Shown piece after piece: positions 23,231 through 42,173 of a stretch of DNA of 64,000 nt. Every line of letters begins with the position of its first letter. Positions within the stretch are counted from its first letter, which is position 1. The notes under the pieces are model-generated. The model was not told the origin of the DNA and ran no database searches. It saw nothing but the letters and a program-made list of their open reading frames with translations. The stretch spans positions 398,823 to 462,822 of the forward strand of contig CP066690.1 of NCBI GenBank assembly GCA_016432465.1, in the 5' to 3' direction. The position numbers and the translations under genes are program-made. Source of the stretch: Candidatus Sungiibacteriota bacterium (GTDB lineage: Bacteria > Patescibacteriota > Minisyncoccia > Sungbacterales > HO2-52-23).

Positions 23231-23289
23231 GCTTGGCGGTTTTATTTTTTTATGCTAAACTTAACATGGTTTTTCTTGGGGGAGAATGG

Positions 23290-23922
23290 ATGATTCGCAT
23301 TGTCACTCTTACTGGCGCGTCTGGTTCTGGGAAATCTACCATTATAAAAGGAGTTTTGTCCGGCATACCGCGTCTGGTGGAGCTTGTTCGCAGCACCACA
23401 ACTCGTCTAAAACGCCCCAGTGATTTGGACGGCGAGTATGAATACATTTCCCGGCCCAAATTTGACGCTTGGGAAAAAAATGGCGTGTTTCTCTGGACAG
23501 TTGAAATGGTTGGGGTGGGCGACGAAAAGTACGGAACGCTTAAAACCCTTGTTGATTTTATCCTTAATAACCCCAAAGGAAAAATCGGCTTAATGCTCCT
23601 TAAGCCAGAAGCCGTGCTCACGCTTAAGTCCTATACCGAAGCAAAACTTGGCCAACAAGCATCAACTAAAATTGACAGCATCTTCATTAACTCTCCGCCC
23701 ACGGGCATACTGCGCGAGCGTATGCTAAAACGCGGGGATTCGGAAAAGTCAGTTGAGCGGCGCCTTGAAGAGTGCAAAGACTGGGACCACATTGCCCACA
23801 CCTCAAGAACTCCGGCCGGCGAAAGAACCATCAACCACTTCATAGACAACCATGAAGGCAGAGAAAATTTGGCCGTAGCTCACGTAATCCTTAGGATCCT
23901 GGAGCTAAGAAGACATGTTTGA
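23290..23922 (+). CDS. Guanylate-kinase-like P-loop nucleoside monophosphate kinase
   Basis: Walker A GASGSGKST, then STTTRLKRPSDLDGEYEYISRPKFDAWEKNGVFLW...YGT resembling Gmk. The RBS gggggag precedes the ATG at 23290. Confidence 0.6.
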   Translation: MIRIVTLTGASGSGKSTIIKGVLSGIPRLVELVRSTTTRLKRPSDLDGEYEYISRPKFDAWEKNGVFLWTVEMVGVGDEKYGTLKTLVDFILNNPKGKIGLMLLKPEAVLTLKSYTEAKLGQQASTKIDSIFINSPPTGILRERMLKRGDSEKSVERRLEECKDWDHIAHTSRTPAGERTINHFIDNHEGRENLAVAHVILRILELRRHV

Positions 23923-24002: not shown

Positions 24003-25622
24003 ATGCCACAAGATACGGGCTTTCTGCGGCCTGACGAGCTGCCGGATCTTCTTGCGAATTACTTGGAGAATTTAAATGACCCCGGAAAATTTCCCTTTAC
24101 CCGCGGAATCTATCCTTCCATGTATCGCGGGAAAAAACCCACCCTGCGGCAATTTGCGGGACACGGCCTGGCCCAAGACACCAATGAACGTTTTAAGACA
24201 ATCTTGGGTCTGGGCGGCGGCGGTCTTTCGGTTGCTTTTGATCTTCCTACGCTCATGGGGAAAGACCCGGACGACCCTCTGTCTCTGGGAACCGTGGGGA
24301 GCGAGGGTGTGGCCGTAACAACGCTGTATGACATGGAAAAACTTTTTGAAGGAATTCCCATTGATCAGATAACCGTCTCCATGACCATAAACGCTCCGGC
24401 TCCGATTATTTTTGCAATGTACATCGTGGCGGCAGAAAAACGCGGTGTAGCGCGAGCCCTCCTCGGGGGAACAATCCAAAACGATATCCTCAAAGAATAC
24501 ATCGCCCAAAAAGAGTGGCTTTTTCCTGTTGAAAAAGGAGTAAAATTCGCGGTTGATCCTATGGAATTTTGCGCCCGTCACATGCCTAAATGGCACCCCG
24601 TATCCATAAGCGGCTATCATATTCGGGAAGCGGGATCAAACGCGCTGCAGGAACTTGCCTATACTCTGGCCGACGGCATGTGTTACGTAGAAAAGTGCCT
24701 CGCCAGAGGACTGCGCCTTGAAGAGTTTGCTCCCCGCCTTTCTTTCTTTTTTGACGTCCACAATAATTTTTTTGAGGAGATTGCCAAACTTCGTGCCAGC
24801 CGCCGCCTGTGGGCAAAAATACTACGCGAGCGCTACCATGCCCCCCTTCCGGAATCATACGAAAATACCAAGGATCCGCGGCTGCAATCACTTTGGTGCA
24901 GAATCCATGCGCAAACCGCGGGATGCACCCTGACGCTTCAGGAACCAATGAATAATATCGTAAGGGTGGCGTATCAGGCGCTCGCCGCAATTCTGGGCGG
25001 AGCGCAGAGTGTGCATACCAACTCTTTTGACGAGGTTATTTGTACGCCCACAGAGAAGGCGCTGCGCCTTGCCATCCGCACCCAACAGATTCTGGTGCAT
25101 GAAACCGAAATCTGCGATTGGGTTGACCCCCTGGGCGGATCATGGCTGGTTGAATCTCTCACCGATAAACTGGAACAAAAAGCAAGAGAAGAAATTGCAT
25201 TGATTTACCGAAACCACGGGGGAATGGAGGGCGCAGTAAAGGCCTCCTACCCGCAAAGACAAATTGCCCGCGAGGCATATTATGACCAGAGGCGAGTGGA
25301 AAGAGGAGAACGAAAAGTTATCGGGGTCAACACTGCGGTTAACATAACACAGGAAGACGAGTTAGCAGATGTCCGTCGCGAGCTTCAAAAACGACGCGGT
25401 TTTGAAGAGCTCCATATTGAAAACGTAAGACGCATCAGGGCCGAACGCTCGCAGGAGGCAGTAGCGCGGGCGCTGGATGAGATAAGACGCGCTGCCGAAA
25501 CTAATTTGAACCTCATGCCCGTCCTGATTGAGGCCGTAAAAACTTATGCTACCTTAGGCGAGATTTGCCATGCGCTTCAGGACGTTTGGGGTTCTTATCA
25601 GGAACGGGAAACCCCCTACTAA
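24003..25622 (+). CDS. Methylmalonyl-CoA mutase family, large-subunit catalytic (substrate-binding) domain
   Basis: FTRGIYPSMYRGKKPTLRQFAGHG...GGGGLSVAFDLPTLMGKDPDDP is the MCM N-terminal signature. No B12-binding domain is found in the 539-aa ORF. Confidence 0.8.
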   Translation: MPQDTGFLRPDELPDLLANYLENLNDPGKFPFTRGIYPSMYRGKKPTLRQFAGHGLAQDTNERFKTILGLGGGGLSVAFDLPTLMGKDPDDPLSLGTVGSEGVAVTTLYDMEKLFEGIPIDQITVSMTINAPAPIIFAMYIVAAEKRGVARALLGGTIQNDILKEYIAQKEWLFPVEKGVKFAVDPMEFCARHMPKWHPVSISGYHIREAGSNALQELAYTLADGMCYVEKCLARGLRLEEFAPRLSFFFDVHNNFFEEIAKLRASRRLWAKILRERYHAPLPESYENTKDPRLQSLWCRIHAQTAGCTLTLQEPMNNIVRVAYQALAAILGGAQSVHTNSFDEVICTPTEKALRLAIRTQQILVHETEICDWVDPLGGSWLVESLTDKLEQKAREEIALIYRNHGGMEGAVKASYPQRQIAREAYYDQRRVERGERKVIGVNTAVNITQEDELADVRRELQKRRGFEELHIENVRRIRAERSQEAVARALDEIRRAAETNLNLMPVLIEAVKTYATLGEICHALQDVWGSYQERETPY

Positions 25623-25730
25623 CTAAAGGTCTTAGAAACCCCCACCACTTGGGGGTTTTGACTTATTGGTAAAGTTATTTAACAATGAGCCGGGGCGCGA
25701 ATAAGCTCTGATTGGAAAGGGGGAGATGGC

Positions 25731-26900
25731 ATGGACTTTAGTTTTACGGACGAGCAGCGAGCCATACAAAAATCCGTTCGTGAGTTTGTGGAACGCAACT
25801 TCCGAAAAGAACTCGTTGAGGAGTACGAACTTAAAGATGCGGAAAGTACGTCTTGGCCCTGGAAGCTCTTTGAAAAAATGGTTGAGGAACTGGGGGTTCA
25901 GGCAGCACCCATCCCCGAAGCATACGGTGGTCTGGGATTAGATACCGTAACATCAACCCTAATTATGGAGGAACTCTCCCGGGGGTGGACCGCCTTTGCT
26001 CTTTCGGCCTTTGCCGTTCCTTGTTCCCTTTACGCCTTCCCTATTTATACGTTCGGAACAATCAATCAGGCCGAACGTTTTGTTCTACCCCTAGTCAAAG
26101 GAGAAATTTTGGGCGGTTTTGCGCTAACCGAACCCAATGCCGGATCCTGGGCTGCTAACCAGCAAACCCGGGCCGAGCGCTACAGCAACGACGAGTATAG
26201 ACTAAATGGCACCAAAACATTTATTACCAACTGCGGTCTTGCCCAATACTATGTGGTGTTTGCCAGAACCGATTTTGTGCCCGGAAAACTTCATCAAGGA
26301 ATCTCCTGTTTTGTGGTGGACGGATGCAGGGCCGGTGTTGCCTCGCTTCCCATCAAAAAGTGGGGACAGAAAGCTTCACCCTTTGGAGAATTGGTTCTAA
26401 CCGATTGTTTTGTGTCCAAAGAAAATTTGATTGGAAAAGAGGGTGAAGGGTATAAAATCGCCATGGCCACTCTTGATAACGGACGCGTTTTCATTGCCGC
26501 CCAAGCTCTGGGTATTGCTCAAGCCGCTTATGAGGAGGCGCTTGGTTATGCCAACCAACGAATTGTTTTTGGAGAAAAATTAAGTTCCCTGCAGCTTACG
26601 CAGGAAAAAATTGCCGACATGCGGGTGAAACTTGAGGCATCACGCCTCCTAACCTACAAAGCCGCGTGGCTCAAAGATCAAGGACTGCCTTTTTCGGAGG
26701 AGGCCTCCATCGCCAAACTTTACGCTTCCGAATGTGCTTGCCAAATTGCGGATAGCGCCATACAGCTTCATGGCGGCTATGGCTACACTAAAGAATTTGC
26801 CGCAATGCGTTTGTGGATTGAAGCGCGGGCTCTGCCGCTTTACGAGGGCACCTCGGAAGTTCAACGTCTCAAGATTGCAAGAAAAAATATCTGTGAGTAA
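25731..26900 (+). CDS. Acyl-CoA dehydrogenase
   Basis: ACAD architecture: EAYGGLGLD, FALTEPNAGS and a C-terminal helical domain with QLHGGYGYTKEF. Confidence 0.85.
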   Translation: MDFSFTDEQRAIQKSVREFVERNFRKELVEEYELKDAESTSWPWKLFEKMVEELGVQAAPIPEAYGGLGLDTVTSTLIMEELSRGWTAFALSAFAVPCSLYAFPIYTFGTINQAERFVLPLVKGEILGGFALTEPNAGSWAANQQTRAERYSNDEYRLNGTKTFITNCGLAQYYVVFARTDFVPGKLHQGISCFVVDGCRAGVASLPIKKWGQKASPFGELVLTDCFVSKENLIGKEGEGYKIAMATLDNGRVFIAAQALGIAQAAYEEALGYANQRIVFGEKLSSLQLTQEKIADMRVKLEASRLLTYKAAWLKDQGLPFSEEASIAKLYASECACQIADSAIQLHGGYGYTKEFAAMRLWIEARALPLYEGTSEVQRLKIARKNICE

Positions 26901-27019: not shown

Positions 27020-27550
27020 ATGCGCGAGCAGCTGCGCGATACTGTATTTTGGGTTGTCACTCTTCTACATAGCGTCTTGGGAACTTGCAATCGCCTGCGT
27101 ACGGCATCGAGCGCCGAGAAAGACAAACGTCTTTATGGTTTTGGTTATAACGGCTCTCTCCCCGGACTCCCTCACTGCGATGACGTGGGACACCTGCTGA
27201 TTGAGGGGCATTGTTTACGGACGCGCCACGGCGAGAGAAACCTTATTGATAATACCCAAGATGAACATTTACGAGGATCACGGGTAAGAGTAATTGCCAC
27301 TCCTTGCATTAACTGCGTAAAAGACCTTGCCGCCAAAGAAGTTCGTGAGATCTTCTTTACCGGAAGCTACGCCAACGCCCTCGGGAAAGAGTTTATTGAA
27401 GAGATCTGCGCTCAAAAAGAAATTGCCCTGCAGCAAGTTCCCGTTGACTGGCAGGAAGCGCTGCAGACGATTTTGGACCGTCTGTCCGAACCGGGTGGAA
27501 TTTTATATAATTCGGGGTACAAACTCCGGGTGGTAAAAGAAAAATTATGA
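27020..27550 (+). CDS. dCMP/cytidine deaminase-like zinc-binding protein
   Basis: RHGERN...VIATPCINCVKDLAAKEVREIFF resembles the HxE / PCxxC deaminase motifs. Confidence 0.55.
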   Translation: MREQLRDTVFWVVTLLHSVLGTCNRLRTASSAEKDKRLYGFGYNGSLPGLPHCDDVGHLLIEGHCLRTRHGERNLIDNTQDEHLRGSRVRVIATPCINCVKDLAAKEVREIFFTGSYANALGKEFIEEICAQKEIALQQVPVDWQEALQTILDRLSEPGGILYNSGYKLRVVKEKL

Positions 27551-28128
27551 GACCTAGACTAATCATTGGCCTTTTAGGGCAAAAGGGCGCCGGAAAGGGC
27601 CTGCTGGTTAAGACTGTTTCCAAATTGCTGCCGCAACATCGCGTTGCGGCACTTCGTTTTTCTGACCCCTTGCGTGAAATTGTTTCCATCCTCGGAAAAG
27701 AAGAATCCAGAGAAAATCTGCAGGCCTTGGGCACGGCGCTGCGCAATGCCTTTGGAGAAGAGGGGGTATTAAATTCGGCGCTTAGGGTGCGGCTGGAAAA
27801 ACTTGACGCTGATATTGTCTTTTTTGACGGCATAAGAAAACAAAAAGAGGCGGAATTTATAAAGGAGCTGGGCGGCATACTTATTTTTATAGACGCCAGT
27901 GAGGAACTGCGCTTTAAAAGACGTTGCCTTAACGCCGAAAACGCGGATGAGGAGGGAATGACGCGGGAACAATTTCAAAAACAGGAGCTTGCGCCAACCG
28001 AGACCACCATCAGAACCATAGCCAACACCATGGCCGATACTGTTATTATTAACAACGGCACAATTGAGGAACTTGAAGAAAAAGCAAAATTACTCTTAAA
28101 TACCCATATCCACCCTAAGCTGGCTTAG
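27547..28128 (+). CDS. P-loop (d)NMP-kinase-like protein
   Basis: Walker A GLLGQKGAGKG; the start overlaps the upstream stop. Confidence 0.5.
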   Translation: MRPRLIIGLLGQKGAGKGLLVKTVSKLLPQHRVAALRFSDPLREIVSILGKEESRENLQALGTALRNAFGEEGVLNSALRVRLEKLDADIVFFDGIRKQKEAEFIKELGGILIFIDASEELRFKRRCLNAENADEEGMTREQFQKQELAPTETTIRTIANTMADTVIINNGTIEELEEKAKLLLNTHIHPKLA

Positions 28129-28137
28129 GAGAAACAA

Positions 28138-28926
28138 ATGGTACCCAATCCCTATCCCGGAAAATTTATCGTGCTGGAGGGTGTTGACGGCTCGGGTAAA
28201 ACAACCCAAACAGAACTTCTGGTTAACCACATTAGAAATGATGGCCTCGCTGTACTCAAAACCAAAGAGCCAACCGCCGACGGCATTTTCGGAAAACTGG
28301 TACGCTTCATTTATACCTGCGAGTCCCGATATGGGGGACTGCCGACTGAACTTGAAAAATGTATAAACGCCCCCACTTATCAGTTGATACGCGAAATGTC
28401 CGAGGAGGCCGCGCAACGCCGCCTAAAAGAGTTTGAAGATATTGCCGTTGAGTTAAAACAGGCAAATCACAATCGTCTTCCAAGATTGCTGCAGCTGGGC
28501 ATGACTTTTGACGGACATGATCATATGGTACGCGAAATTATTCCTGCTCTGGGGCAAGGAATAAATGTTATTTCCGATCGCTGGAGATTTTCCACCCCCG
28601 CTTATGCCGCAGCAGACGGTATGCGGTGGCGCGACTTCTGGATCCTGCAGGAGGAAATTCTGAAAGGGACGCTCATCAAACCGGATCTGGTTTTATTTTT
28701 GGAAATACCGGTAAGGGTTGGTTTGGAACGCTCGCTGGCCAAACAAGGTGGCCGGACAGAGTACTTTGATACCGCAGAAAGGATGGATAAAATCCAAAAA
28801 GCTTATCGCGACCTCTTCTTTGGTCTTAGCCTAGAATCCCTACTGGTTCAGAAACTGGACGGAACGCCGTCTCCGGAAATAGTACACAATCAAATCTGGC
28901 GCATGACAGAACCGCTTCTGACCTAA
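28138..28926 (+). CDS. tmk: Thymidylate kinase
   Basis: FIVLEGVDGSGKTTQ is the Tmk P-loop, with a downstream TKEPT region. Confidence 0.8.
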   Translation: MVPNPYPGKFIVLEGVDGSGKTTQTELLVNHIRNDGLAVLKTKEPTADGIFGKLVRFIYTCESRYGGLPTELEKCINAPTYQLIREMSEEAAQRRLKEFEDIAVELKQANHNRLPRLLQLGMTFDGHDHMVREIIPALGQGINVISDRWRFSTPAYAAADGMRWRDFWILQEEILKGTLIKPDLVLFLEIPVRVGLERSLAKQGGRTEYFDTAERMDKIQKAYRDLFFGLSLESLLVQKLDGTPSPEIVHNQIWRMTEPLLT

Positions 28927-29002
28927 CTTATCCACAACCCTCCCTTGAGGGTTGTTTTCCATCTATGCTACTCTGGCACAAGCACATTAAGAGGAAAACA
29001 CC

Positions 29003-29806
29003 ATGCGCATTGTTGAACCTAGAGTATTTCTAGTGGGAGAAACACGACTGATTGATGAAGAATTCAACGCGTATCTTGAGCACGTCGGCGCACCCGAGTG
29101 GCGTTCAATAAAATCGCAACAGTGTCCTGACGCGCCAACCGACATAGAAAAAATGCCCGAGATAATGGGCCGCCTCTGCTACCGAAGCTGGAAGCCCAAG
29201 CTTAACCCCAATGTTACCCGAGTGCGCGAGGGCAATGACGAGTACTTAAATAATATCCTTAAATCGGCCCACGGTTCGGTTCTGGAGCATAGCTTCATTA
29301 ACTTCATCTTTGCCAACGTGAGCCGCGTCTTCACTCACGAACTGGTGCGCCATCGAGTGGGGGTGGCCATATCGCAGGAAAGTCTTAGGTTTGTCCGCCT
29401 TGATAACCTTGGCTTCTGGCCGCCTTTGGTGCTTCGCGAGTATGCCGATGCCATAGACATTATGATGAAAACAGTGGGGGAGCTGGAAAAAGTGCAGGTT
29501 GAACTGGCTAAAATTCTGAAACTTGACGAACTAACCAAATTTGAACAAAAAAAGAAGCTGACCTCGGCCATGCGCCGCGTTGCCAACATTGGCCTTGCCA
29601 CCACCATTGGCTGGTCAGCCAACATTCGCACCCTGCGGCACGTGATTGAAATGAGAACAAATCCCGGAGCCGAAGAGGAAATCAGACTAGTATTTGGTCT
29701 GGTGGCGGAAAAACTTAAATCCCGCTACCCCAATCTTTTTGGGGACTACACCGTAGAAGTAATTGATGGCTTGCCATGGTATAAAACAGAGTATCGCAAA
29801 GTGTAA
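29003..29806 (+). CDS. thyX: FAD-dependent thymidylate synthase ThyX
   Basis: ThyX signature ELVRHRVGVAISQESLRF (RHRx7S). Confidence 0.85.
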   Translation: MRIVEPRVFLVGETRLIDEEFNAYLEHVGAPEWRSIKSQQCPDAPTDIEKMPEIMGRLCYRSWKPKLNPNVTRVREGNDEYLNNILKSAHGSVLEHSFINFIFANVSRVFTHELVRHRVGVAISQESLRFVRLDNLGFWPPLVLREYADAIDIMMKTVGELEKVQVELAKILKLDELTKFEQKKKLTSAMRRVANIGLATTIGWSANIRTLRHVIEMRTNPGAEEEIRLVFGLVAEKLKSRYPNLFGDYTVEVIDGLPWYKTEYRKV

Positions 29807-29943
29807 TCTGGCCACCGGCCAGATTTTTTTACAACTAACCCCCCCCCGCGATCGTGGCCGAGAGCTTAATCAAATATCTGTTGACAAAAAACAAGGGGGA
29901 GGCTAACATCAATTCAGTTATTTAAATATGCTGGGGGAAGCTC

Positions 29944-30633
29944 ATGCCTTACGTTCCAAGCGAAAAAACATCTCCGCCCGCAGACGATAGAAAAACCCTT
30001 GATCCGGCTATTGAAGCCGTTGCGCAAGAAGCCGCAGAGACAATTACGAATAATCTTTCCTTAATTCGGGTGTATAAAAATATATTCCTTTCGGTGGCTA
30101 GACTTTTGCGCGGTTTGCTTATAGACGGCCATCTCTCAACTGCTCCTGATGCCGAAGTTAAACTGGCGCAGGCCATATACGAAGTGGGTAAAAAATATGG
30201 TTATGAGGGCGCGCAGCTTGGCGAATTGAACTATTCTATTACACGATTTATTCAACGCGTTCCGCAAATCCTGGTAGAGATGGGCAGGTGGAAAGAGAGC
30301 GATGAATTGCGCTATTGGTCCGATGCTTCAATGACAGAGGCTTTAATCTGCGCCGCAGATGTTACAAAAGAATGGGGACTTGGAATAGGCGGCGTATTTG
30401 AAGATATCAAAGATGAACATAAAGAGCGCGTAAATAAGGCCTATGAAATCGCGCAGATTTTAAAGAGCGGGGACTGCTACGACACGCCTTATTACTCCCG
30501 TATAGTGGAGGTGGTGGACGAAGACGGAAATTTGATAGGACATCTATATGTAGCACTTAAGCGCGGTGAATCAACGCTAAATGTTGATCTTTTGCCGTAT
30601 CAGTTCGTCTTGAGAAAAAAGCCGCTTGCTTAG
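29944..30633 (+). CDS. Hypothetical protein
   Basis: 229-aa ORF followed by terminator hairpin. Confidence 0.4.
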   Translation: MPYVPSEKTSPPADDRKTLDPAIEAVAQEAAETITNNLSLIRVYKNIFLSVARLLRGLLIDGHLSTAPDAEVKLAQAIYEVGKKYGYEGAQLGELNYSITRFIQRVPQILVEMGRWKESDELRYWSDASMTEALICAADVTKEWGLGIGGVFEDIKDEHKERVNKAYEIAQILKSGDCYDTPYYSRIVEVVDEDGNLIGHLYVALKRGESTLNVDLLPYQFVLRKKPLA

Positions 30634-30659
30634 AACACATCTTTTCCACAGATTTTGAA

Positions 30660-30688
30660 CACGCAACTAACACTTGCGTGCTTTTTTC
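30660..30688 (+). terminator. Rho-independent terminator
   Basis: cacgcaactaacacttgcgtg followed by cttttttc. Confidence 0.6.
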
Positions 30689-31044
30689 TATTTTTGTCTA
30701 AATTTTGGAGTAGCAACGAACAAAATTTAGTAACAAAAATGAGAACCCCGCCCCAGTTTTGCCACTAATTTCACGTTAAAAACCCGAGCATCATGTAACC
30801 ACGAATACTATTGCGACGTGCGGTGGCCGGATAGGCCCACCCTCGGTGCGCGAAGCCCCGTCACCAAAATTTCGATTGTTTCTTTGGCTGCCCCGAATAA
30901 GCTGGCGGGATAAAGTTAGAGAAGCAGTAGAGTGTTCTTCTCCGGTTGGAGGAAAACATAAGCAGCTATCGAAATTTGGTGCGGGGCGAAGCACGCCGCG
31001 ATGCACTGGTTGCAAAACTGGTGCGGGGTTGCTACATTTCAGAT

Positions 31045-31329
31045 ATGAACCCCGTTAGAAACCGAGTTTTGTGGTCTGTGTATCTTCTGTCCAGCAAGAA
31101 AACGGGGAGGTGGTATATTGGGTCTAGTAGAGACTTGCGAAAAAGAATTTTAAGTCATAACTTGGGAAATAGTATATCAACAAAACATGGGATTCAGTGG
31201 AAGTTAGTTTATTGTGAAATAGGACTAAATAAAAACGATGCCCGTGCGAGGGAGAAATATCTCAAGTCCGGAATGGGCAGAAGATATTTAAAAAATCGTT
31301 TAAAATTCTTTTTCGCACAAGGTTTCTAA
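31045..31329 (+). CDS. GIY-YIG nuclease family protein (second copy)
   Basis: WSVYLLSSKKTGRWYIGSSRDLRKRILSHN is a GIY-YIG motif. The ORF track extends to 30946, but the ATG at 31045 gives a size like the first copy. Confidence 0.65.
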   Translation: MNPVRNRVLWSVYLLSSKKTGRWYIGSSRDLRKRILSHNLGNSISTKHGIQWKLVYCEIGLNKNDARAREKYLKSGMGRRYLKNRLKFFFAQGF

Positions 31330-31333
31330 CGGA

Positions 31334-31759
31334 GTGAAATCTGTAGTCATTTGCGGCTCACAACGCTATAAAAATGAGATTAAAAATTTCGCGGAGCGTC
31401 TCCGCAAACTCGGAGTTCCGGTTGTTTTTGAACCCAACTTTGAACGCCAGCGCAAGAAAATGCTCACCAAAGTAGAGTCAGAACGCCTTAAATCCAAGTC
31501 CTACCGCGACCGGGTGCCAGCCATGGTGCATGAGCATTTTGACCGCATCCGCAAAGCCGATGTCTGCTACGTTTATAATAAAGAGGGTTACCTTGGGGTA
31601 AACACCACGCTGGAACTTGGTTTTGCCCACGGCAAAAACATGGTGATTTATGCGCTGGAGCCGGAGAAGCCCATTGAACATGGTGGCGAGATTTGCCGCG
31701 ACATTCTATTTACCGAAATCATTGACAAACCGGACGAGCTTGTGAAAAGATTGATATAG
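31334..31759 (+). CDS. Nucleoside 2-deoxyribosyltransferase-like / dNMP N-glycosidase-like protein
   Basis: MKSVVICGSQRY...YLGVNTTLELGFAHGKNMVIYALEP resembles the Rossmann-like Nuc_deoxyrib_tr fold. A paralog lies at 33573. Confidence 0.45.
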   Translation: MKSVVICGSQRYKNEIKNFAERLRKLGVPVVFEPNFERQRKKMLTKVESERLKSKSYRDRVPAMVHEHFDRIRKADVCYVYNKEGYLGVNTTLELGFAHGKNMVIYALEPEKPIEHGGEICRDILFTEIIDKPDELVKRLI

Positions 31760-31778
31760 CACTTGCCAGAGAAGTAAT

Positions 31779-32300
31779 ATGCCAAAAATCTGCGACAACA
31801 AAAGCGTGGGAATACTGGTTTGGAACAAGGGAGAACTCTTAATGATTGAGCGAAGAAAGTACAACTTCGGGTTCGCGATCCCGGCCGGACATCAGGACGG
31901 AGATGACCCCGAAACTATCGCGAAAAAAGAACTTTTTGAAGAAGTTGGGCTTAAGACCGGGGGACTGGAAAAAAAACTTGAAATCGGTCTTCCCAATCCC
32001 TGCAAAAGAGAAGGCGGCGCGCAGCACGATTGGACCGTATTTGAAGCCAACGGATGGACAGGCGAAATAAAACCGTCTCAGGACGAGACCAAAAGCTACT
32101 TCTGGGCCGATCGGAAAAGAATTATTGAGCTCGCCGAACGACTTCAGGAATTTGCTAAATCCCAAGGGATTTCTCTGTCACCGGACGGCCACGACTTGCC
32201 TCGTCTGGTTGAAGCCTCCAATACCGACCCTGCTTGGCGGGAAAACCCGGGGCTTGAACCGCCTATGTACTTCTTATTTAAAGAGCTGGGAATTCTTTAA
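31779..32300 (+). CDS. NUDIX hydrolase
   Basis: Nudix box GHQDGDDPETIAKKELFEEVGL (Gx5Ex7REuxEExGu). Confidence 0.75.
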   Translation: MPKICDNKSVGILVWNKGELLMIERRKYNFGFAIPAGHQDGDDPETIAKKELFEEVGLKTGGLEKKLEIGLPNPCKREGGAQHDWTVFEANGWTGEIKPSQDETKSYFWADRKRIIELAERLQEFAKSQGISLSPDGHDLPRLVEASNTDPAWRENPGLEPPMYFLFKELGIL

Positions 32301-32356
32301 TCCCGCGCAAGCGGGATTTGCGTTTTATGAGGATCCGTGATATAGTTATATAATAA

Positions 32357-32740
32357 ATGCCTGTGGGGGTTGAGATGAAGGGTTGGAAAATACACACAAG
32401 TCCGGCTTTGATAACCATAGACGAAGACGAACTTCATTCTCTTCGCTATATCTTACTCTTTTGCAGAGAAAAATTTCTTTCCTGCTTCCTGAAAGACAAA
32501 GAACACAAAGAAGCAGAACTTCTTTTGTGGGATCTCCCGTTAATCCTTAGGGAAAGTTTTATTCCAAAGATAATGCCCTTGGCGGCCAGACTCTACCTTA
32601 CCCTTGCTACTCTGGGAATTTCCGCAATTAAACGCCGACAAACGCCGGAGTGCCAACACTGCGGCCGCGATAAAAATTGGCACATTGAATCACTAAAGAA
32701 AGTAATTGCCAACCTCAATCCCGTTTATAATAAAAACTAA
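32357..32740 (+). CDS. Hypothetical protein
   Basis: 127-aa ORF. Confidence 0.35.
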   Translation: MPVGVEMKGWKIHTSPALITIDEDELHSLRYILLFCREKFLSCFLKDKEHKEAELLLWDLPLILRESFIPKIMPLAARLYLTLATLGISAIKRRQTPECQHCGRDKNWHIESLKKVIANLNPVYNKN

Positions 32741-32766
32741 GACCCGCTGATGCGGGTCTTCTGAAT

Positions 32767-33504
32767 TTAAGGACGTCTGCTGCCGGGGACGTCAAAGCCA
32801 AGATGCGGCGAAAGAAGCTTGGGGCGTATACGGTCAATCAGCTGCAGGGCTCGCCACAAAACCCCCAAGGCATCAAGCTCTGTGGTGTCAATTACAACAT
32901 CAAAGTTGTCTGGAGCAAGGTGGTTTTTCAGACCATACAAACCGTCATAACGCCCCTGCTCAACCAAAACCCTTTTCTCCGTATCTTCCAAGATAGACTC
33001 GGTTGTTTTCCCTGAATTTTCTGCCCGTTCCAGCTGACGCAGCGCACCAACTTGGGGGTCAACCACGCAGCAGATGTTTATAAAAATCTTGTCTAGTGCC
33101 CGGCCTTCCTCGTGTAATTTTTTTGCTAAAAACCAAGCAATTCTTCCTTCGTGTACTCCACAATCCTTTTTCTCAAGAAACTCCATCTGCACCCAATCAA
33201 CCAACCGATCAAGTTCTGGGGGAAACTCCGCATAAGCCTGGGTTAACCTAGGCTGGGGGTTTATCAACCCAGACTCCATGGCCCTTGTTACTTCCTGTGG
33301 CGGCATAGCCAAAACCATTTCACGCCCCACCTCCTCAATTTTTGCCGTAAGCCAACGAATTACTCCACCGGAGTAATAGGGCGGGGGCCAATTAAGTTTT
33401 TTTGCTAGCTTTTTGCCAAACGTGGTAGAGCCAGATCCCGGAAAACCTGTTACCGTAATGCCTAAACGCTGCATGTAAACCCCGTAGCTTTGGTGCTGCC
33501 CCAA
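32767..33504 (-). CDS. P-loop nucleotide kinase-like protein (cytidylate-kinase-like N-terminus)
   Basis: ITVTGFPGSGSTTFGKKLAKKL is a Walker A motif. Confidence 0.5.
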   Translation of the reverse strand: MGQHQSYGVYMQRLGITVTGFPGSGSTTFGKKLAKKLNWPPPYYSGGVIRWLTAKIEEVGREMVLAMPPQEVTRAMESGLINPQPRLTQAYAEFPPELDRLVDWVQMEFLEKKDCGVHEGRIAWFLAKKLHEEGRALDKIFINICCVVDPQVGALRQLERAENSGKTTESILEDTEKRVLVEQGRYDGLYGLKNHLAPDNFDVVIDTTELDALGVLWRALQLIDRIRPKLLSPHLGFDVPGSRRP

Positions 33505-33572
33505 GCATCCTCTAACTTCTGTGCTAAGTCAATATTTTGTTTTTCCAAAAAATCTGGTATGTTTATGGTGCC

Positions 33573-34031
33573 ATGAAATCCGTAGTCTTTTGCTCAAGTC
33601 AAAGGTTCAAAAAAGACATGGAAGAGTTCGTTGCCGAACTTAAACGCTTAGCCAAGGAGCGAGATGCCCACGTTGTTGTTTTTGATCCGGAATTTGAAGA
33701 TCATCCGCACGAATTCAGAAACCAGCACGAAAAAGACAGATTACAAAACCCCATGTACCGCGCCACGGTTGCCGGCAAGGTTTATGATCATCTTTTCCGT
33801 AAAGTACGCGTGGCTGATGTTTGTTTTATCTTCAATAAAAATGGATACATCGGGGCCAACACCTCGGGGGAACTTTTTGCCGCAGCGGCTTTGGGTAAAA
33901 CCATCTATGCTCTAGACGATCGAACACTCATGGGTTCTTACCCGCATGATCTTTACGAGGAGCCCTCGCCCCGGAAATTAGTCCACGAGGTGATACCAAC
34001 CCCGGAAGAATTGCTGAAAAGGTTGTTATGA
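33573..34031 (+). CDS. Nucleoside 2-deoxyribosyltransferase-like paralog
   Basis: MKSVVFCSSQRFK...YIGANTSGELFAAAALGKTIYAL parallels the protein at 31334. Confidence 0.45.
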   Translation: MKSVVFCSSQRFKKDMEEFVAELKRLAKERDAHVVVFDPEFEDHPHEFRNQHEKDRLQNPMYRATVAGKVYDHLFRKVRVADVCFIFNKNGYIGANTSGELFAAAALGKTIYALDDRTLMGSYPHDLYEEPSPRKLVHEVIPTPEELLKRLL

Positions 34032-35233
34032 AAAGAATACTAGCCATAGAAACAAGCTGTGACGAAACCGCAATAGCCATTGCGGAATTTTTTGGCCCAA
34101 AAAGAAAACCGCAAATCAGAGTTCTTTCCAACATCATCTCCTCACAGGTAAAAATCCATGAAAAATTTGGAGGAGTGGTGCCGAACTTGGCCAAAAGAGA
34201 ACACCAGCGCAGTCTCGTACCAACTTTATTGCAGGCACTATCTGAAGCCGGGCGAAAAGATTTACGATTTAAGATTTACGATTTAAGAAAAACGCCAAAA
34301 CAGAAAATTCCTAAATCTAAAGTCTTAAATCTTAAATCTGTGCTGGCGCGCGAGCCGGAGCTTTTTAAACAATTCAATAAACGAATCGTGCCTCTCGTGT
34401 CCCCCAAGATAGACGCCATTGCCGTAACCTACGGGCCGGGGCTTGCGCCGGCCTTGTGGGTGGGCGTGAATTTCGCGCGGGCGCTTGCGTATCTTTGGGG
34501 CAAACCCCTGATTCCGGTCAATCACATGGCCGGCCATCTCTACTCCGCTTTTTTGCAAAAAAGCGGCGGCCTACAAGCTATCAAATTTCCCGCGCTCGCT
34601 CTGCTGGTCAGCGGCGGACACACCGAATTGGTACTTGTGGGGGGCGGCGGAAAATTTAAAATTCTTGGCGAGACATTGGACGATGCGGCTGGCGAGGCAT
34701 TTGATAAAGTTGCGAGACTTCTTGGGTTAGGGTATCCGGGGGGACCCGAAATTTCTCGGCTTGCCGATCGATTGAAGTCCGACTTCGACGGTTTTGAAGT
34801 CGGACTTCAGCGTATTAAACTGCCGCGGCCCATGACAAACTCAAAAGATTATAATTTTTCCTTTTCAGGATTGAAAACTGCGGTGTTTTACCTCGTGCGG
34901 GATTTGGGTGTAAAACGCGCGAAGAAACTCCGTCCTTTTATTGCCAAAGAATTTCAAGACGCTGTAGTGGATGTCCTCGTCAAAAAAACCATACGTGCCG
35001 CCAAAGAATATAAAGCAAAAACGGTGCTCTTGGGCGGCGGCGTTGCGGCAAACAAGCTTTTGCGCAGGAGACTTATCCGAACTGTAGCCCGCGAACTGTC
35101 AAACACCGAGTGTTTGACAGTGCCGCTTGGACTCTCGGGTGATAATGCCTTGATTATCGCTCTCGCCGCGTTTTTCGCCGGAAAGAAAAAAGCCCCGAGC
35201 AAAATCGGAGCTGATGCGAACGCCAAACTTTAA
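34028..35233 (+). CDS. tsaD: tRNA N6-adenosine threonylcarbamoyltransferase TsaD
   Basis: MKRILAIETSCDETAIAIAE plus HMAGH and the ASKH-fold layout. The 401-aa protein carries an internal low-complexity insertion. Confidence 0.85.
   Translation: MKRILAIETSCDETAIAIAEFFGPKRKPQIRVLSNIISSQVKIHEKFGGVVPNLAKREHQRSLVPTLLQALSEAGRKDLRFKIYDLRKTPKQKIPKSKVLNLKSVLAREPELFKQFNKRIVPLVSPKIDAIAVTYGPGLAPALWVGVNFARALAYLWGKPLIPVNHMAGHLYSAFLQKSGGLQAIKFPALALLVSGGHTELVLVGGGGKFKILGETLDDAAGEAFDKVARLLGLGYPGGPEISRLADRLKSDFDGFEVGLQRIKLPRPMTNSKDYNFSFSGLKTAVFYLVRDLGVKRAKKLRPFIAKEFQDAVVDVLVKKTIRAAKEYKAKTVLLGGGVAANKLLRRRLIRTVARELSNTECLTVPLGLSGDNALIIALAAFFAGKKKAPSKIGADANAKL
34257..34340 (+). repeat. Short direct and inverted repeats inside tsaD
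   Basis: gatttacgatttaa occurs twice, with inverted partners ctaaatctaaagtcttaaatcttaaatc. The region encodes DLRFKIYDLRK...KSKVLNLKS. Confidence 0.55.
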
Positions 35234-36780
35234 ACCCTTGCTGAAAGCCCTTGGGCCAGCTTAATTTCTTGCCCGTAATTTACGGTAAACGCGGTTTCGT
35301 GGCAGAGATAGTTAAAGAGCCACGCTGCTGAAGGCATGCCGGTGCCGGAACGACGCATTCCACCAAAGGGCAAATGAACTTCTGCGCCAATAGAGGGCAG
35401 ATTTACATACTTCAGACCGGCCCTACCCCTAATCTTAAACTCGCGCATCTTACGAAAGTCATTTGTAATCAGGGCCATGGAAAGGCCATATTCGTGATCA
35501 TTGGCAACATGCAATGCCTCATCAAAATCACGTACTGGTACAATCACCACGTTGGGCGTGAAAAATTCCTCGCGTAAAGCAAACGTAGTGGGCCGATACT
35601 GCATACGAAAAACATTGGGCAGAACATAAAGGCCGTGTCGTCCTCCCACGTAAGAAGTAAGACGTTCCGCTCCGTCAGCCAGTATTGTCCGTTCGCAGTC
35701 AAAATATTTTTCTACGGCCGCGTTATTAATCAGCGGACCGGCAAAGTTTTTGGGGTCAAACGGGTCACCAAAGCGTAACCTTTTTACCTTATCCAGAAAA
35801 AGTTGAGTAAATTCCGGCTCGATTGCTTCTTCTACAATAAGCATGTCCGCCGAAACACAACGCTGGTGGGCGGTCTTGAACGCCGAGAGAATAGAGGCGG
35901 CAACCGCAAGTTCTAAATCAGCATCTTTTAGTACGATGACCGAGTTTTTCCCGCCCATCTCACAAACGGCAAACTTATCAAAGTGCTCGGCGGTTTTCTT
36001 TTTTACCTCTGCGCCTACTGCATAAGAACCCGTAAAAAGCTGGCCCACCGTTCCGGGGTGCGATACAAGATAGCTCCCCACCTCTCCATCTCCGTGCACC
36101 AGATTAAGAACGCCCGGCGGCACTAAAGATGTATCTCTAATGGGTCCACGAGTTGCCTCATGAAAAAGCTCCACCAGACGCTGACCGCAAAGAGGCGTAT
36201 CTTCTGACGGCTTGAATACCACAGTATTCCCGGAAACCAGTGCCGGCCCGATCAGCCACGTCGGGATGGCAACAGGAAAATTCCACGGGGTGATTACTGT
36301 ACAAACACCGCGGGGACTAAGATAAGTTTCTGACTCCTTGTCGGGGATCTCCGAAGAAATTTTATGCCCTATAGGATGTCGGCCCCGACCTGCACAATAC
36401 TGCAGCATATGTATGGCCTCAACCACATCCGCACGTGCTTCATCAATATGTTTCCCGCTCTCGCGTGTTATCAGCTTTGCCAATCCTTCTTTATCTGCTT
36501 TCAAAAGCTGCACCCACTCATCAATGATTTCGGCACGCCTTACCCACGAGTAACGACGTGGATCACCCCAAATCGCCAGCGCGTCATTGGCAGCAGCAAC
36601 CGCAGAGTCAATCTCTTCTTTGGTAGCTTGCGGCGCATAACCAAGAACGGTCCCGGCTGCTGGTTCCCCAACTACAAAATCAGCGCGCATCGGACCCCAC
36701 ATACTGTTGATATAATTCCTGCCGTAAAGTACTTCCACCTTGTTCTCCTTTTCAAAGAGCGCACTTTGCGCCATAATCAA
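35230..36780 (-). CDS. Aldehyde dehydrogenase family protein
   Basis: 516 aa with an ALDH fold; the catalytic region includes [16 protein letters not shown]. Confidence 0.8.
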
Positions 36781-40997: not shown

Positions 40998-41072
40998 TGG
41001 GGGATCTGCTAATTGGCAGGCGACTGGACTTTGGATCCAGAGATGAAGGTTCGAATCCTTCTCCCCCAGCCA
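40998..41072 (+). tRNA. tRNA-Gln(TTG)
   Basis: Acceptor tggggga/tccccca with discriminator g and CCA. The anticodon arm is ctgga-cttTGga-tccag and the T arm is gaaggttcgaatccttc. Confidence 0.7.
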
Positions 41073-41111
41073 AGTCTGACTTGGCCCAGCCAACCTCTGA
41101 CAAAATCCTGC

Positions 41112-41187
41112 TGCAGGGTCGGATAACTGGCAATCCAACGGACTGTTAATCCGTACGATGAGGGTTCGAATCCCTCCCCTGCAGCCA
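41112..41187 (+). tRNA. tRNA-Asn(GTT)
   Basis: Acceptor tgcaggg/ccctgca, anticodon arm acgga-ctGTTaa-tccgt, T arm gagggttcgaatccctc, CCA encoded. Confidence 0.75.
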
Positions 41188-41215
41188 ATCCTACTAATAG
41201 ATAGGGGATTCGAGT

Positions 41216-41291
41216 TGGGAGGTCGTCTAACTGGTAGGACGCCGGGCCCTGAACTCGGAAACCGAAGGTTCGAACCCTTCCCTCCCAACCA
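41216..41291 (+). tRNA. tRNA-Gln(CTG), with an atypical anticodon loop
   Basis: Acceptor tgggagg/cctccca, anticodon arm ccggg-ccCTGaa-ctcgg, T arm gaaggttcgaacccttc, CCA encoded. Confidence 0.55.
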
Positions 41292-41345
41292 AGCTAATCT
41301 TGGCCAACCAATTTGCTTTGCGTAACCTGCTTGACCATTATCTGT

Positions 41346-41419
41346 TGCGGGGAGAGCTGGCGCTCCCACCGGTCTCATAAGCCGAGTGGCGTGCGGTTCA
41401 ATTCCGCCCTCCGCAACCA
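41346..41419 (+). tRNA. tRNA, anticodon CAT (Met/Ile2), with a short D arm
   Basis: Acceptor tgcgggg/ctccgca, loop ctCATaa, T arm tgcggttcaattccgcc, CCA encoded. Confidence 0.6.
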
Positions 41420-41429
41420 AACTCCATGT

Positions 41430-41507
41430 CAGGGTGTCGCCCAGTCCGGCCAGGGCGCTTGGCTTGGGACCAAGAGGTCGTAGGTTCAAATCCTACCACC
41501 CTGACCA
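41430..41507 (+). tRNA. tRNA-Pro(TGG)
   Basis: Acceptor cagggtg/caccctg, D stem gccc/gggc, anticodon arm cttgg-ctTGGga-ccaag, T arm gtaggttcaaatcctac, CCA. Confidence 0.75.
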
Positions 41508-41540
41508 ACTCTTTTTTGATAAATCAGGACGCGTTTCAGT

Positions 41541-41616
41541 GGGGCCGTAGCTCAGTTGGGAGAGCGCCTGACCTGCAATCAGGGGGTCGTCGGTTCAAGT
41601 CCGACCGGTTCCACCA
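41541..41616 (+). tRNA. tRNA-Ala(TGC)
   Basis: Acceptor ggggccg/cggttcc with the G3:U70 pair, anticodon arm cctga-ccTGCaa-tcagg, T arm gtcggttcaagtccgac, CCA. Confidence 0.8.
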
Positions 41617-41643
41617 AAAACTTTTGGATGCAGTTCAAACGGG

Positions 41644-41720
41644 GCGGGTGTGGCCGAATGGCTAAGGCGCCAGCCTTCCAAGTTGGTTTTTTGTGGGTTC
41701 GAGTCCCACCACCCGCTCCA
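41644..41720 (+). tRNA. tRNA-Trp(CCA)
   Basis: Acceptor gcgggtg/cacccgc, anticodon arm ccagc-ctTCCAa-gttgg, T arm gtgggttcgagtcccac, CCA. Confidence 0.7.
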
Positions 41721-41863
41721 AATTTGATAAGAGGGACTCGAAGGGTATTTTAAAAAGCAAATGTTTTTGCTTTTTAAAAACCCAGGCTCCGAAGGAGCGC
41801 GGAGCCTCCGACAGAAGTCGGAGTGCGAAGCGCGAGTGAGGAGGAGTCCCACCACCCGCTCCA
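41721..41863 (+). repeat. tRNA-associated structured repeat element (copy 1) with a 20-nt duplication of the tRNA-Trp 3' end
   Basis: Core gggactcgaagggtatttt + hairpin aaaaagcaaatgtttttgcttttt + aaaaccc + ggctccgaaggagcgcggagcc + tccgacagaagtcggag + tgcgaagcgcgagtgaggagg. Then gagtcccaccacccgctcca, identical to 41701-41720. Confidence 0.7.
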
Positions 41864-41893
41864 AGACTTTTCTTCCCAGAGTCGAATATCGGT

Positions 41894-41968
41894 GGTGACC
41901 TTGGCCGAGAGACGAGGCATCGGACTGTGGCTCCGAGCACGTGGGTTTGAATCCCATAGGTCACCCCA
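41894..41968 (+). tRNA. tRNA-His(GTG) with encoded G-1
   Basis: g-gtgacct...aggtcac-c-cca; anticodon arm tcgga-ctGTGgc-tccga; T arm gtgggtttgaatcccat. Confidence 0.75.
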
Positions 41969-41980
41969 ACCCCTTCTGGT

Positions 41981-42056: not shown

Positions 42057-42086
42057 AATCTGATCAACCAAACCACTTGAATCCGG

Positions 42087-42162: not shown

Positions 42163-42173
42163 AGATTCCCTGC

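Follow-up and report, generated by a model that had tools for sequence, protein, structure and literature searches.

What is the function of a densely packed island of nucleotide-handling genes, two of them encoding paralogous proteins reminiscent of nucleoside deoxyribosyltransferases (NDTs), in a bacterium of the Candidate Phyla Radiation (CPR), from which nucleotide synthesis is generally absent (PMC7304191)? The question is raised by positions 27020–34031 of a 64,000-nucleotide stretch of contig CP066690.1 (the window, here and below), a cellular CPR chromosome whose host is a Candidatus Sungiibacteriota bacterium (Parcubacteria). The island comprises, in this order, genes for a dCMP deaminase, a P-loop deoxynucleoside monophosphate (dNMP) kinase-like protein, thymidylate kinase (Tmk), flavin-dependent thymidylate synthase (ThyX), a DUF6899 protein, a GIY-YIG protein, the first NDT-like paralogue (NDT-A), a Nudix hydrolase, an orphan open reading frame (ORF), a Cmk-like protein on the opposite strand and the second NDT-like paralogue (NDT-B) (Table 1). 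An initial annotation of this DNA, made from its letters alone, had proposed a dNMP salvage or base-exchange module and, as a speculative alternative, a role in DNA hypermodification. All island genes that it named are present where it placed them, as confirmed by the ORF list and by family scans of the window proteins against Pfam, NCBIfam (with TIGR equivalog cut-offs) and PHROG. The analysis presented below shows that the NDT-A/Nudix/NDT-B module (together with DUF6899) represents a strongly conserved variation on an enzyme superfamily already known, and points, with belief and doubt about evenly balanced, to a block for thymidylate and dNMP-kinase supply joined to a salvage or sanitation module that would take nucleoside triphosphates (NTPs) via nucleoside monophosphates (NMPs) to free base and sugar-phosphate.

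The NDT-like proteins, NDT-A (gene at 31334, N-terminus MKSVVICGSQRY) and NDT-B (33573, MKSVVFCSSQRF), had been paired by the initial annotation on account of a common MKSVV start, and are indeed related (38% identical, E 4e-31). Homologues of NDT-A (277 clusters, 75–91% identity) and of NDT-B (362 clusters, 65–84%) delineate two separate orthologous families. An exhaustive profile search of 1.84 billion representatives returned only 561 NDT-like clusters at E ≤ 1e-3, so the NDT-like family is a small one. Scored singly against Pfam PF05014 (Nuc_deoxyrib_tr), both paralogues remain below the gathering threshold of 28.8 bits (NDT-A, 14.4 bits, E 0.044; NDT-B, 20.3 bits, E 6e-4); among 58 diverse family representatives, this model is reached at E ≤ 0.01 by 44 (best E 3.3e-11) and PF15891 by 11. 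The AlphaFold2 model of NDT-B (predicted local distance difference test, pLDDT, 75) has the flavodoxin-like alpha/beta fold of the NDT superfamily, with 7M5H, CtNDT, DpNDT, BpNDT, YtoQ and DNPH1 as the top Foldseek matches (probability ~1.0, template-modelling (TM) score 0.45–0.56); the matches include an uncharacterized E. faecalis protein. A profile of 58 family sequences matches the Bacillus psychrosaccharolyticus NDT (6EVS) at E 1.6e-4, and it alone reached NDTs in the PDB, where single NDT-A and NDT-B sequences and a 13-sequence profile gave noise only. Taken together, the PF05014 matches of the representatives, the Foldseek matches and the 6EVS profile match establish membership of the NDT/DNPH1 superfamily; family membership is not established. 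The Nuc_deoxyrib_tr-like identity assigned initially thus holds in the sense of divergent superfamily members, and fails at the level of the proteins' own PF05014 scores. In the literature searched, YtoQ yielded no informative paper, and NDT-like/Nudix modules of Patescibacteria none at all.

In DNPH1 and MilB, nucleotide N-glycosidases of this superfamily, the catalytic triad consists of Tyr24 (Phe in MilB), Asp80 and Glu104, and the covalent-intermediate mechanism permits transfer and hydrolysis alike (PMC10603095, PMC10483697). One of these three residues is retained in the NDT-like family: Glu100 of NDT-B is invariant, as is its counterpart in NDT-A; among the 58 representatives this residue reaches at least 90% conservation (within a G-x-x-x-E-L-G-(Y/F)-A motif), and it aligns with the nucleophile Glu of 6EVS, 8PQP, 4HX9 and DNPH1 (Glu104). 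The general-acid Asp of NDTs (Asp72 in LlNDT, Asp62 in CtNDT, the "NDL" Asp of 6EVS) is replaced by His73, invariant in both paralogues and kept in most of the wider family, which falls within one residue of DNPH1 Asp80 in the alignment. The position of the catalytic Tyr (Tyr24 in DNPH1, Phe17 in MilB) is occupied by Val or Ile throughout the family, with Tyr in 0 of 58 representatives. The first strand carries the motif (V/I)-V-(I/F)-C-(G/S)-S-x-(R/K), and the YFAGPLF signature is absent. In a low-probability profile alignment, VVFCSSQR is set against DNPH1 YFCGSIR, placing C7, S9 and R11 opposite C26, S28 and R30, and likewise Gly94 (the sole invariant column of the family) opposite DNPH1 Gly100 and Tyr92 opposite Ser98. 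The 5'-phosphate in DNPH1 is bound by the main-chain NH groups of Ile29, Arg30, Gly31 and Gly100 (PMC10483697), and in MilB the phosphate is coordinated by Arg23, the counterpart of DNPH1 Arg30 (PMC10603095); NDT-B Arg11 is the positional equivalent of both arginines. From these phosphate-site residues and the aligned loop we infer that the substrate is a nucleoside 5'-monophosphate, processed by a Glu/His variant of the double-displacement mechanism. As neither a Tyr nor a Phe is available for recognition of the 2' position, the sequence does not distinguish a ribo from a deoxyribo specificity.

A side-by-side comparison with the two nearest groups of characterized enzymes reveals likenesses as well as substantial differences. 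With DNPH1/Rcl, MilB and BcmB the NDT-like proteins share the flavodoxin-like fold class (Foldseek matches 9IA6, 4KXL and 4P5D), and with DNPH1 specifically the aligned nucleophile Glu and, in the low-probability profile alignment, the F-C-(G/S)-S-x-R strand-loop and the Gly facing its phosphate-contacting Gly100; the family profile also touches the CMP N-glycosidase 4JEN (E 0.1), and the nearby deaminase and NTP pyrophosphatase recall the pathway logic of nucleotide-pool sanitation. They differ from these enzymes in the Tyr24 to Val/Ile and Ser98 to Tyr replacements, in the replacement (or flanking) of Asp80 by an invariant His, in a helical insert of 30–40 residues with a conserved E-K-x-R-L motif, in having two obligatorily co-occurring paralogues rather than a homodimer, and in the lack of any sequence-level match for single sequences. 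The NDTs proper (PF05014; Lactobacillus NDT/PDT, CtNDT, BpNDT, DpNDT) provide the best structural and profile matches (8PQS, 7O62, 6EVS) and the common core "...AD-(x)n-G-x-x-T-x-x-E-L-G-(F/Y)-A", while NDT-A and NDT-B differ from them in their subthreshold Pfam scores, the missing YFAGPLF, the Asp to His replacement and the predicted 5'-phosphorylated substrate. On balance, the NDT-like proteins appear to resemble, functionally, the DNPH1/MilB nucleotide N-glycosidases more closely than the Lactobacillus nucleoside transferases.

Both paralogues are under strong purifying selection and are about as conserved as ribosomal protein L11. Across the same genomes, identity is 72.5% for NDT-A and 65.3% for NDT-B, compared with ~70% for L11, 45% for the Nudix protein, 41% for the deaminase (Dcd) and 29% for Tmk. 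Their genomic setting was analyzed in 77 loci from species-representative genomes, which were fetched with an NDT-like profile and on which homologues of the island proteins were mapped by tblastn and iterated hidden Markov models (HMMs). The block lies on the chromosome, and its synteny extends over dozens of Paceibacteria species, with the consensus order rplK - (Dcd) - Tmk - (ThyX) - (DUF6899) - (NDT-A) - Nudix - (Cmk-like) - NDT-B. Of the 58 loci with room upstream of NDT-B, 41 have a Nudix gene on the same strand that ends no more than 1.6 kb before it (median gap ~150 bp), and 25 of 33 loci have a Nudix gene that begins no more than 400 bp after NDT-A, further Nudix/NDT-like adjacencies being found by HMM mapping; in addition, the Tmk/Dcd/ThyX block recurs beside rplK in many loci. 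These counts, together with that recurrence, demonstrate that the clustering of the island genes is not due to chance. A complete Niyogibacteria genome has the arrangement rplK-Tmk-ThyA-DHFR-DUF6899-x-Nudix-Dcd-NDT-B, where ThyA plus dihydrofolate reductase (DHFR) stand in the place of ThyX, which speaks for selection on the function rather than for shared ancestry alone, and for thymidylate synthesis being functionally linked to the Nudix/NDT-like genes. In two loci other, unannotated proteins occupy the slot beside the Nudix gene, namely one of 253 aa (L006, 9175–9936) and one of 355 aa (L087, 5760–6827), with NDT-like motifs discernible by eye (…SGGSAFELAY… and IYIAMPLT … SPGVINELREA, respectively). 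The 253-aa protein has no Pfam match, and the family HMM gives no match to the 355-aa protein, which stands in the NDT-A slot of the Niyogibacteria genome and has its NDT-like motifs in the C-terminal half.

Could such a cluster be no functional module at all, just a gene order inherited in small, slowly rearranging genomes? All analyzed loci do come from one CPR class with strong general synteny (rplK ... TsaD-LeuRS-PrsW). We nevertheless regard this as decidedly improbable, as the Nudix/NDT-like pair is kept where its neighbours change (L006/L016, L061, L063, L075, L078), the association is mirrored independently by gene fusions, and ThyA plus DHFR can take the place of ThyX. Within the wider NDT-like family, tandem duplications of the domain account for ~17 of the top 150 representatives, and one protein (P0337) consists of two NDT-like domains followed by MazG; another (P0521) fuses DUF6899 to a Nudix domain. 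The tandems and the MazG fusion support both a pairing of NDT-like domains and their coupling to NTP-to-NMP hydrolysis. P0337 combines in one polypeptide two NDT-like domains and an NTP pyrophosphohydrolase, i.e., the parts list of NDT-A, Nudix and NDT-B, and differs in having an all-alpha MazG in place of Nudix and a more distant sequence (E ~1e-9 to the profile).

A further clue to the reaction product comes from two loci (L082 and L085), in which proteins 57–61% identical to NDT-A directly follow a gene for an aldolase of 251–253 aa resembling deoxyribose-phosphate aldolase (DERA). The only PDB relatives of the latter are deoxyribose-phosphate aldolases (best match 3R12, E 2.3e-5, with the Schiff-base Lys region aligned), and such a neighbour fits a (deoxy)ribose-5-phosphate product. 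As a separate observation, the NDT-A-like genes in these loci (L082, 7229–9997; L085, 6469–10638) are surrounded by genes for the DERA-like aldolase, a NeuB-cupin protein, an HAD phosphatase, a CMP-sugar-type cytidylyltransferase and a GFO/IDH/MocA oxidoreductase, and a NeuB-NDT fusion protein (P0259) also exists; the sequences of these clusters and of P0259 hint at a nucleotide-derived sugar-phosphate feeding a Kdo- or sialic-acid-like pathway.

Breakdown is not the only chemistry that this superfamily supports. The NDT-like pair could be a transferase catalyzing base exchange on deoxynucleosides or dNMPs, thereby rebalancing the four dNMP pools of a cell that lives on scavenged DNA before the kinases act, with the two paralogues differing in base preference like PDT and NDT of lactobacilli. 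Superfamily membership, the retained nucleophile Glu, a covalent-intermediate mechanism that allows transfer (PMC10603095, PMC10483697), the presence of four NMP-kinase-like genes in the block and the maintenance of two paralogues side by side are all in line with this possibility. Nevertheless, the loop after the first strand (β1) is of the nucleotide-glycosidase type rather than the YFAGPLF of nucleoside transferases, neither the Tyr nor the Asp that the transferases use for catalysis is present, and the Nudix/MazG link and the DERA-like aldolase fit breakdown better than exchange; we therefore consider a transferase unlikely, though worth keeping in view.

The thymidylate genes of the island are those of an ordinary pathway. 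The canonical bacterial version (ComEB/Dcd-ThyX-Tmk) is matched here by deaminase, ThyX and Tmk genes placed in this order on one strand, and the differences are limited to a divergent deaminase and to the physical linkage with the NDT-like/Nudix module. The deaminase is found below the ComEB cut-off (79 bits, E 3e-22, cut-off 219) and marginally below that of Pfam (24.6 vs. 25), with a PHROG dCMP deaminase match at 2.6e-8; this, and an HGE instead of HAE motif, mark it as an apparently divergent member, homologues of which occupy the same block in many related loci. ThyX contains the expected RHR...SxxSxR motif (RHRVGVAISQESLRF in the translation). The P-loop dNMP-kinase-like protein has its best families in phages and archaea (PHROG_139 dNMP kinase, 1e-20; PRK08356, 2.6e-20; PDB 3LW7/3H0K, 1.4e-7). 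The Walker A motif of the Cmk-like protein is non-canonical (GFPGSGSTT, the invariant Lys being replaced by Ser); this replacement is common to the L008 orthologue, and more distant homologues retain GxGKS. The Nudix box is likewise a variant (...KELFEEVGL, within …GHQDGDDPETIAKKELFEEVGL), with Lys for Arg and one residue fewer than in the Gx5Ex7REUxEExGU consensus, and the best PDB match of the Nudix protein is NUDX1 (E 0.009). Terminator-like hairpins identified by a terminator scan 3' of the ThyX, DUF6899, Nudix and Cmk-like genes suggest four transcription units: Dcd-kinase-Tmk-ThyX, DUF6899, (GIY)-NDT-A-Nudix and NDT-B-TsaD.

Combining these elements yields a tentative scheme, about which, as said above, we are evenly divided, of a housekeeping Paceibacteria block that would supply and curate deoxynucleotides in cells without de novo nucleotide synthesis. 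In this scheme dCMP deaminase would provide dUMP, ThyX would convert it to dTMP and Tmk to dTDP, while the dNMP-kinase-like protein, the Cmk-like protein and the nearby guanylate kinase (Gmk) would phosphorylate the remaining salvaged (d)NMPs. The Nudix enzyme would turn (d)NTPs, canonical or damaged/modified, into (d)NMPs, and a putative hetero-oligomer of NDT-A and NDT-B would cleave the N-glycosidic bond of nucleoside 5'-monophosphates (ribo or deoxyribo, normal or modified) via a covalent Glu intermediate, presumably by hydrolysis rather than base transfer, with His as the general acid replacing the usual Asp. Salvage would receive the free base, and central metabolism the (deoxy)ribose-5-phosphate, released in this reaction, and the purpose may be either the recovery of base and pentose phosphate or, by analogy with DNPH1, the clearing of non-canonical nucleotides that arrive with scavenged nucleic acids. 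The dNMP salvage or base-handling module proposed initially for a reduced organism is thereby upheld in outline (CPR host, conserved thymidylate and NMP-kinase cluster, NDT/DNPH1 superfamily), except that its NDT-like members are not plain deoxyribosyltransferases, given that two of the three catalytic residues differ and that the N-terminal loop resembles that of nucleotide N-glycosidases. A bolder version, which we hold to be quite unlikely, envisions the Nudix-fed NDT-A/NDT-B hetero-oligomer with its Glu/His pair as a dNMP base-exchange enzyme (deoxyribose-5-phosphate transferase) or a selective N-glycosidase with which Paceibacteria clean and rebalance dNMPs from scavenged DNA, as a previously undescribed, near-universal CPR step conserved to the degree of a ribosomal protein, with DUF6899 as a further, new-fold component.

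Several observations weigh against the proposed salvage or sanitation scheme. Of the three defining residues of NDT/DNPH1 catalysis, Tyr and Asp are absent, so the reaction may be a different one or have been lost; hhalign gives the DNPH1 alignment a low probability (8–41%), the NDT-B model is only moderately confident and its fold matches are weak, and every database name for the NDT-A and NDT-B families is "hypothetical". The Cmk-like protein may not be a conventional kinase, as its Walker A motif indicates, so that one of the "kinases" of the block is perhaps none. Gene adjacency in tiny, highly syntenic CPR genomes in part reflects shared ancestry, and the DERA-like neighbour sits in a NeuB/cytidylyltransferase/HAD sugar cluster, such that this clade may serve glycan synthesis rather than nucleotide catabolism. 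Finally, it is unusual for small-molecule catabolic enzymes to be as conserved as a ribosomal protein, which could be a sign of a macromolecular partner.

The latter point leads to the possibility that the NDT-like proteins act on a macromolecule or a dinucleotide, for instance as a TIR/SLOG-like glycohydrolase of NAD(P)+, nicotinamide mononucleotide or ADP-ribose working with Nudix, or as a nucleotide-sensing or nucleic-acid-binding housekeeping factor. ADP-ribose and NADH are common substrates of Nudix hydrolases, the SARM1 TIR domain and viral TIR/SLOG proteins are likewise touched in the fold search, one NDT-B orthologue is named "CD-NTase-associated protein 12/Pycsar effector TIR domain" in UniRef, and NDT-B is translationally coupled to TsaD in this genome. 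Nevertheless, neither NDT-A nor NDT-B has a TIR/SLOG match in Pfam or any match in PADLOC, and ThsB_TIR and TIR_2 are each weakly matched by 1 of the 58 representatives vs. 44 for PF05014; the block is anchored to thymidylate rather than NAD genes, and the TsaD adjacency of NDT-B is confined to close relatives. On this evidence we consider such a function improbable.

DUF6899, the least familiar component of the conserved block, is a Parcubacteria family of 485 homologues with many invariant residues (MPYVPS..., GELNY, ELRYW, GVFEDIKDEYK, KSGDCYDTPYY). Its gene lies between thymidylate synthase and the NDT-A/Nudix genes in nine loci and elsewhere in two other genomes. The AlphaFold2 model (pLDDT 89) consists of six long helices and a small C-terminal three-stranded sheet, and a fold search returned no significant PDB neighbour (best E 0.24, weak ferritin-like bundles); a MazG-like or dimeric-dUTPase-like all-alpha pyrophosphatase, which was considered as a candidate, is unsupported by that search. 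A literature search yielded no paper on this family, which is a probable accessory of nucleotide metabolism. Separately, DUF6899 homologues (35–52% identical) occur on 14 IMG/VR predicted viral contigs (L090–L103) of up to 181 kb. The other window proteins have no tblastn match at E ≤ 1e-5 on these contigs, where HMM matches were limited to ORFs containing Nudix (L090, L101) and one P-loop kinase (L102). DUF6899 has no match in GenBank phages, PHROGs or PADLOC, and two tested ORFs neighbouring it on an IMG/VR contig have no GenBank phage match.

These contigs bear on the alternative raised initially, that the island makes or maintains a non-canonical DNA base, as do phage pathways in which NDT-like proteins occur together with kinases and thymidylate-synthase homologues. 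The gene mix is superficially like that of phage nucleotide-modification clusters, the island P-loop kinase matches a phage dNMP kinase family, and, of the 14 predicted viral contigs bearing DUF6899, two have a Nudix ORF and one a P-loop kinase nearby. Against this, the block resides on the chromosome and its synteny is kept in many cellular genomes, the NDT-like proteins are without a match in IMG/VR viral contigs, GenBank phages or PHROGs, ThyX and Tmk exceed the equivalog cut-offs of ordinary enzymes (ThyA plus DHFR being able to substitute), and Pfam, NCBIfam and PHROG scans of 12 genes found no hydroxymethylase, glycosyl- or amino-transferase, PurZ or DpdA-like gene in the block. Inspection of the surroundings for a phage-like context revealed rplK, TsaD, LeuRS and tRNA genes instead. 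The hypermodification proposal, which thus found no support from phage context, base-modifying enzymes or an unusual ThyX, appears scarcely credible.

Table 1. Features of the window discussed in the text, numbered from its first nucleotide
Feature	Length	Coordinates	Strand	Remarks
PheRS, single-chain		13475–14611	+
GyrB with intein		15573–18989	+
Guanylate kinase (Gmk)		23233–23922	+	Member of the same conserved block in relatives (context of L008/L009)
Methylmalonyl-CoA mutase large subunit and acyl-CoA dehydrogenase		24003–26900
dCMP deaminase (ComEB/Dcd type)	176 aa	27020–27550	+	HGE and PCINC zinc/catalytic motifs (PCxxC)
P-loop dNMP-kinase-like protein (UPF0200/PRK08356 type)	193 aa	27547–28128	+	Overlaps deaminase stop by 4 nt
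Thymidylate kinase Tmk	262 aa	28138–28926	+	TIGR00041 100.3 bits vs. cut-off 83.25; Pfam 1.3e-27; GVDGSGKTT P-loop
ThyX (flavin-dependent thymidylate synthase)	267 aa	29003–29806	+	TIGR02170 93.1 bits vs. cut-off 87.9; Pfam Thy1 5e-33
Terminator-like hairpin, end of ThyX		29805–29825
DUF6899 protein	229 aa	29944–30633	+	Pfam PF21840 1.4e-7; terminator-like hairpin 30660–30680
Stable predicted fold upstream of GIY-YIG gene, non-coding		30780–31060	+	Minimum free energy -114.4 vs. shuffles -87.9 +/- 5.2 kcal/mol, z -5.1; - strand z -3.8
GIY-YIG (URI-domain) protein	~94 aa	31045–31329	+	ORF open from 30946; Pfam GIY-YIG 7.5e-13, residues 43–108 of long ORF; likely start ATG 31045
NDT-A	141 aa	31334–31759	+	GTG start; divergent NDT/DNPH1-superfamily protein; equivalents of NDT-B Glu100 and His73 kept
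Nudix hydrolase	173 aa	31779–32300	+	Pfam NUDIX 43.7 bits vs. cut-off 21.1, E 3.5e-11; 20 nt after NDT-A; terminator-like hairpin 32299–32318
Orphan ORF	127 aa	32357–32740	+	Alternative call for the same genome: start 32375, 121 aa
Cmk-like P-loop protein	245 aa	32767–33504	-	TIGR02173 (d)CMP kinase (archaeal-type) 3.9e-12, under cut-off; Pfam Cytidylate_kin2 4e-6
NDT-B	152 aa	33573–34031	+	ATG start; stop overlaps TsaD start (34028); Glu100, His73, Ser9, Arg11, Gly94 conserved
Aldehyde dehydrogenase		35230–36780
tRNA array		40998–43896	+	21 tRNA genes in 2.9 kb
tRNA with CCA (Trp) anticodon		42412–42496	+	85–87 nt, long variable arm
P-loop kinase-like/PP-loop ATPase fusion	539 aa	45974–47593	-
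RdgB/HAM1 XTP/dITP diphosphatase ORF		47590–48015	-	Spans model positions ~62–181 only
Second deaminase (CDA fold)		55618–56118	+	HAE … CEGC; Pfam 4e-9

The three hypothetical genes counted originally reduce to two ORFs, those of DUF6899 and of the orphan protein. The 410 bp between DUF6899 and the GIY-YIG start (30634–31044) are non-coding. Among relatives that have both genes (e.g., L012, L018), DUF6899 and NDT-A are separated by ~200 bp, and GIY-YIG genes are found in only 4 of the 77 loci (L013, L062, L081, L084). As their positions vary among these four, the copy in the window, which had been correctly recognized from the outset, looks inserted and is probably an insertion relative to related genomes. 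The structured stretch that precedes it is unmatched in Rfam, and 86 related loci contain no similar DNA; a conserved GIY-YIG-associated RNA was rejected for want of an Rfam match and because L081, whose NDT-A is likewise preceded by a GIY-YIG gene, has no counterpart of the stretch. The orphan ORF, with no match in Pfam, NCBIfam, PHROG or PADLOC and no homologue in the 77 loci, is a doubtful, or possibly lineage-specific, gene.

The cellular nature of the surroundings is evident from a set of genes that includes, in addition to rplK, Gmk and TsaD, those for GatA, aminoacyl-tRNA synthetases (incl. LeuRS), GyrB, the CCA-adding enzyme and 28 tRNAs. NDT-A and DUF6899 are 100% identical to HYW89_02255 and HYW89_02245, respectively, of a Candidatus Sungiibacteriota metagenome-assembled genome (923 kb contig), and all close homologues derive from Parcubacteria/Patescibacteria groundwater genomes. 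Gmk is split from the block here by the methylmalonyl-CoA mutase/acyl-CoA dehydrogenase pair. Within this pair and at the aldehyde dehydrogenase gene downstream of the island, the local GC content is slightly higher (0.51). No mutase or acyl-CoA dehydrogenase counterpart is found in the 77 loci, and the aldehyde dehydrogenase has a single weak match among them (29% identity, L068); the three genes, which are unusual for a CPR genome and interrupt a block that is conserved otherwise, may have been acquired laterally.

Further observations were made elsewhere in the window. Its tight tRNA array covers most amino acids in a genome of ~0.9 Mb. The window's only tRNA with a CCA (Trp) anticodon, located within this span, scores as tRNA-Sec in Rfam (48 bits vs. 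a gathering score of 47), with anticodon CCA rather than UCA, and could be an unusual class-II-like or allo-tRNA-like tRNA-Trp. PheRS is of the single-chain, mitochondrial or "PheS-related SrmL"-like type (class II core and FDX-ACB anticodon-binding domain), falling just under both NCBIfam cut-offs. GyrB is interrupted by an intein (Intein_splicing domain, residues 495–910), and the 574-aa ThyX orthologue in L008/L009 may likewise carry one. The RdgB/HAM1 ORF may have a mis-set start or be truncated, and the gene that follows it encodes a protein in which a P-loop kinase-like domain is joined to a PP-loop ATPase (WbuX/QueC-like); both add to the nucleotide-related genes found outside the island. 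The second deaminase, also predicted at the outset, is borne out by its Pfam match and its HAE and CxxC motifs; it has a long insertion and no NCBIfam match, and its gene lies directly downstream of tRNA-Arg(TCG), outside the conserved block.

Overall, these results concern a group, the CPR/Patescibacteria, that accounts for a large share of bacterial diversity and is thought to live on nucleotides of the host or environment, while its nucleotide-processing enzymes have mostly been deduced from a few known pathways. The block described here exposes two NDT-superfamily families and the fold-orphan DUF6899, which are among the most conserved Paceibacteria proteins and are tied to thymidylate synthesis and Nudix. 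If NDT-A and NDT-B are indeed Glu/His nucleotide N-glycosidases or transferases, they would fill a gap in the CPR nucleotide economy, add to the catalytic repertoire of a superfamily with uses in nucleoside-analogue biocatalysis (NDTs) and as a target in cancer therapy (DNPH1), and would provide testable markers for salvage-dependent lifestyles.

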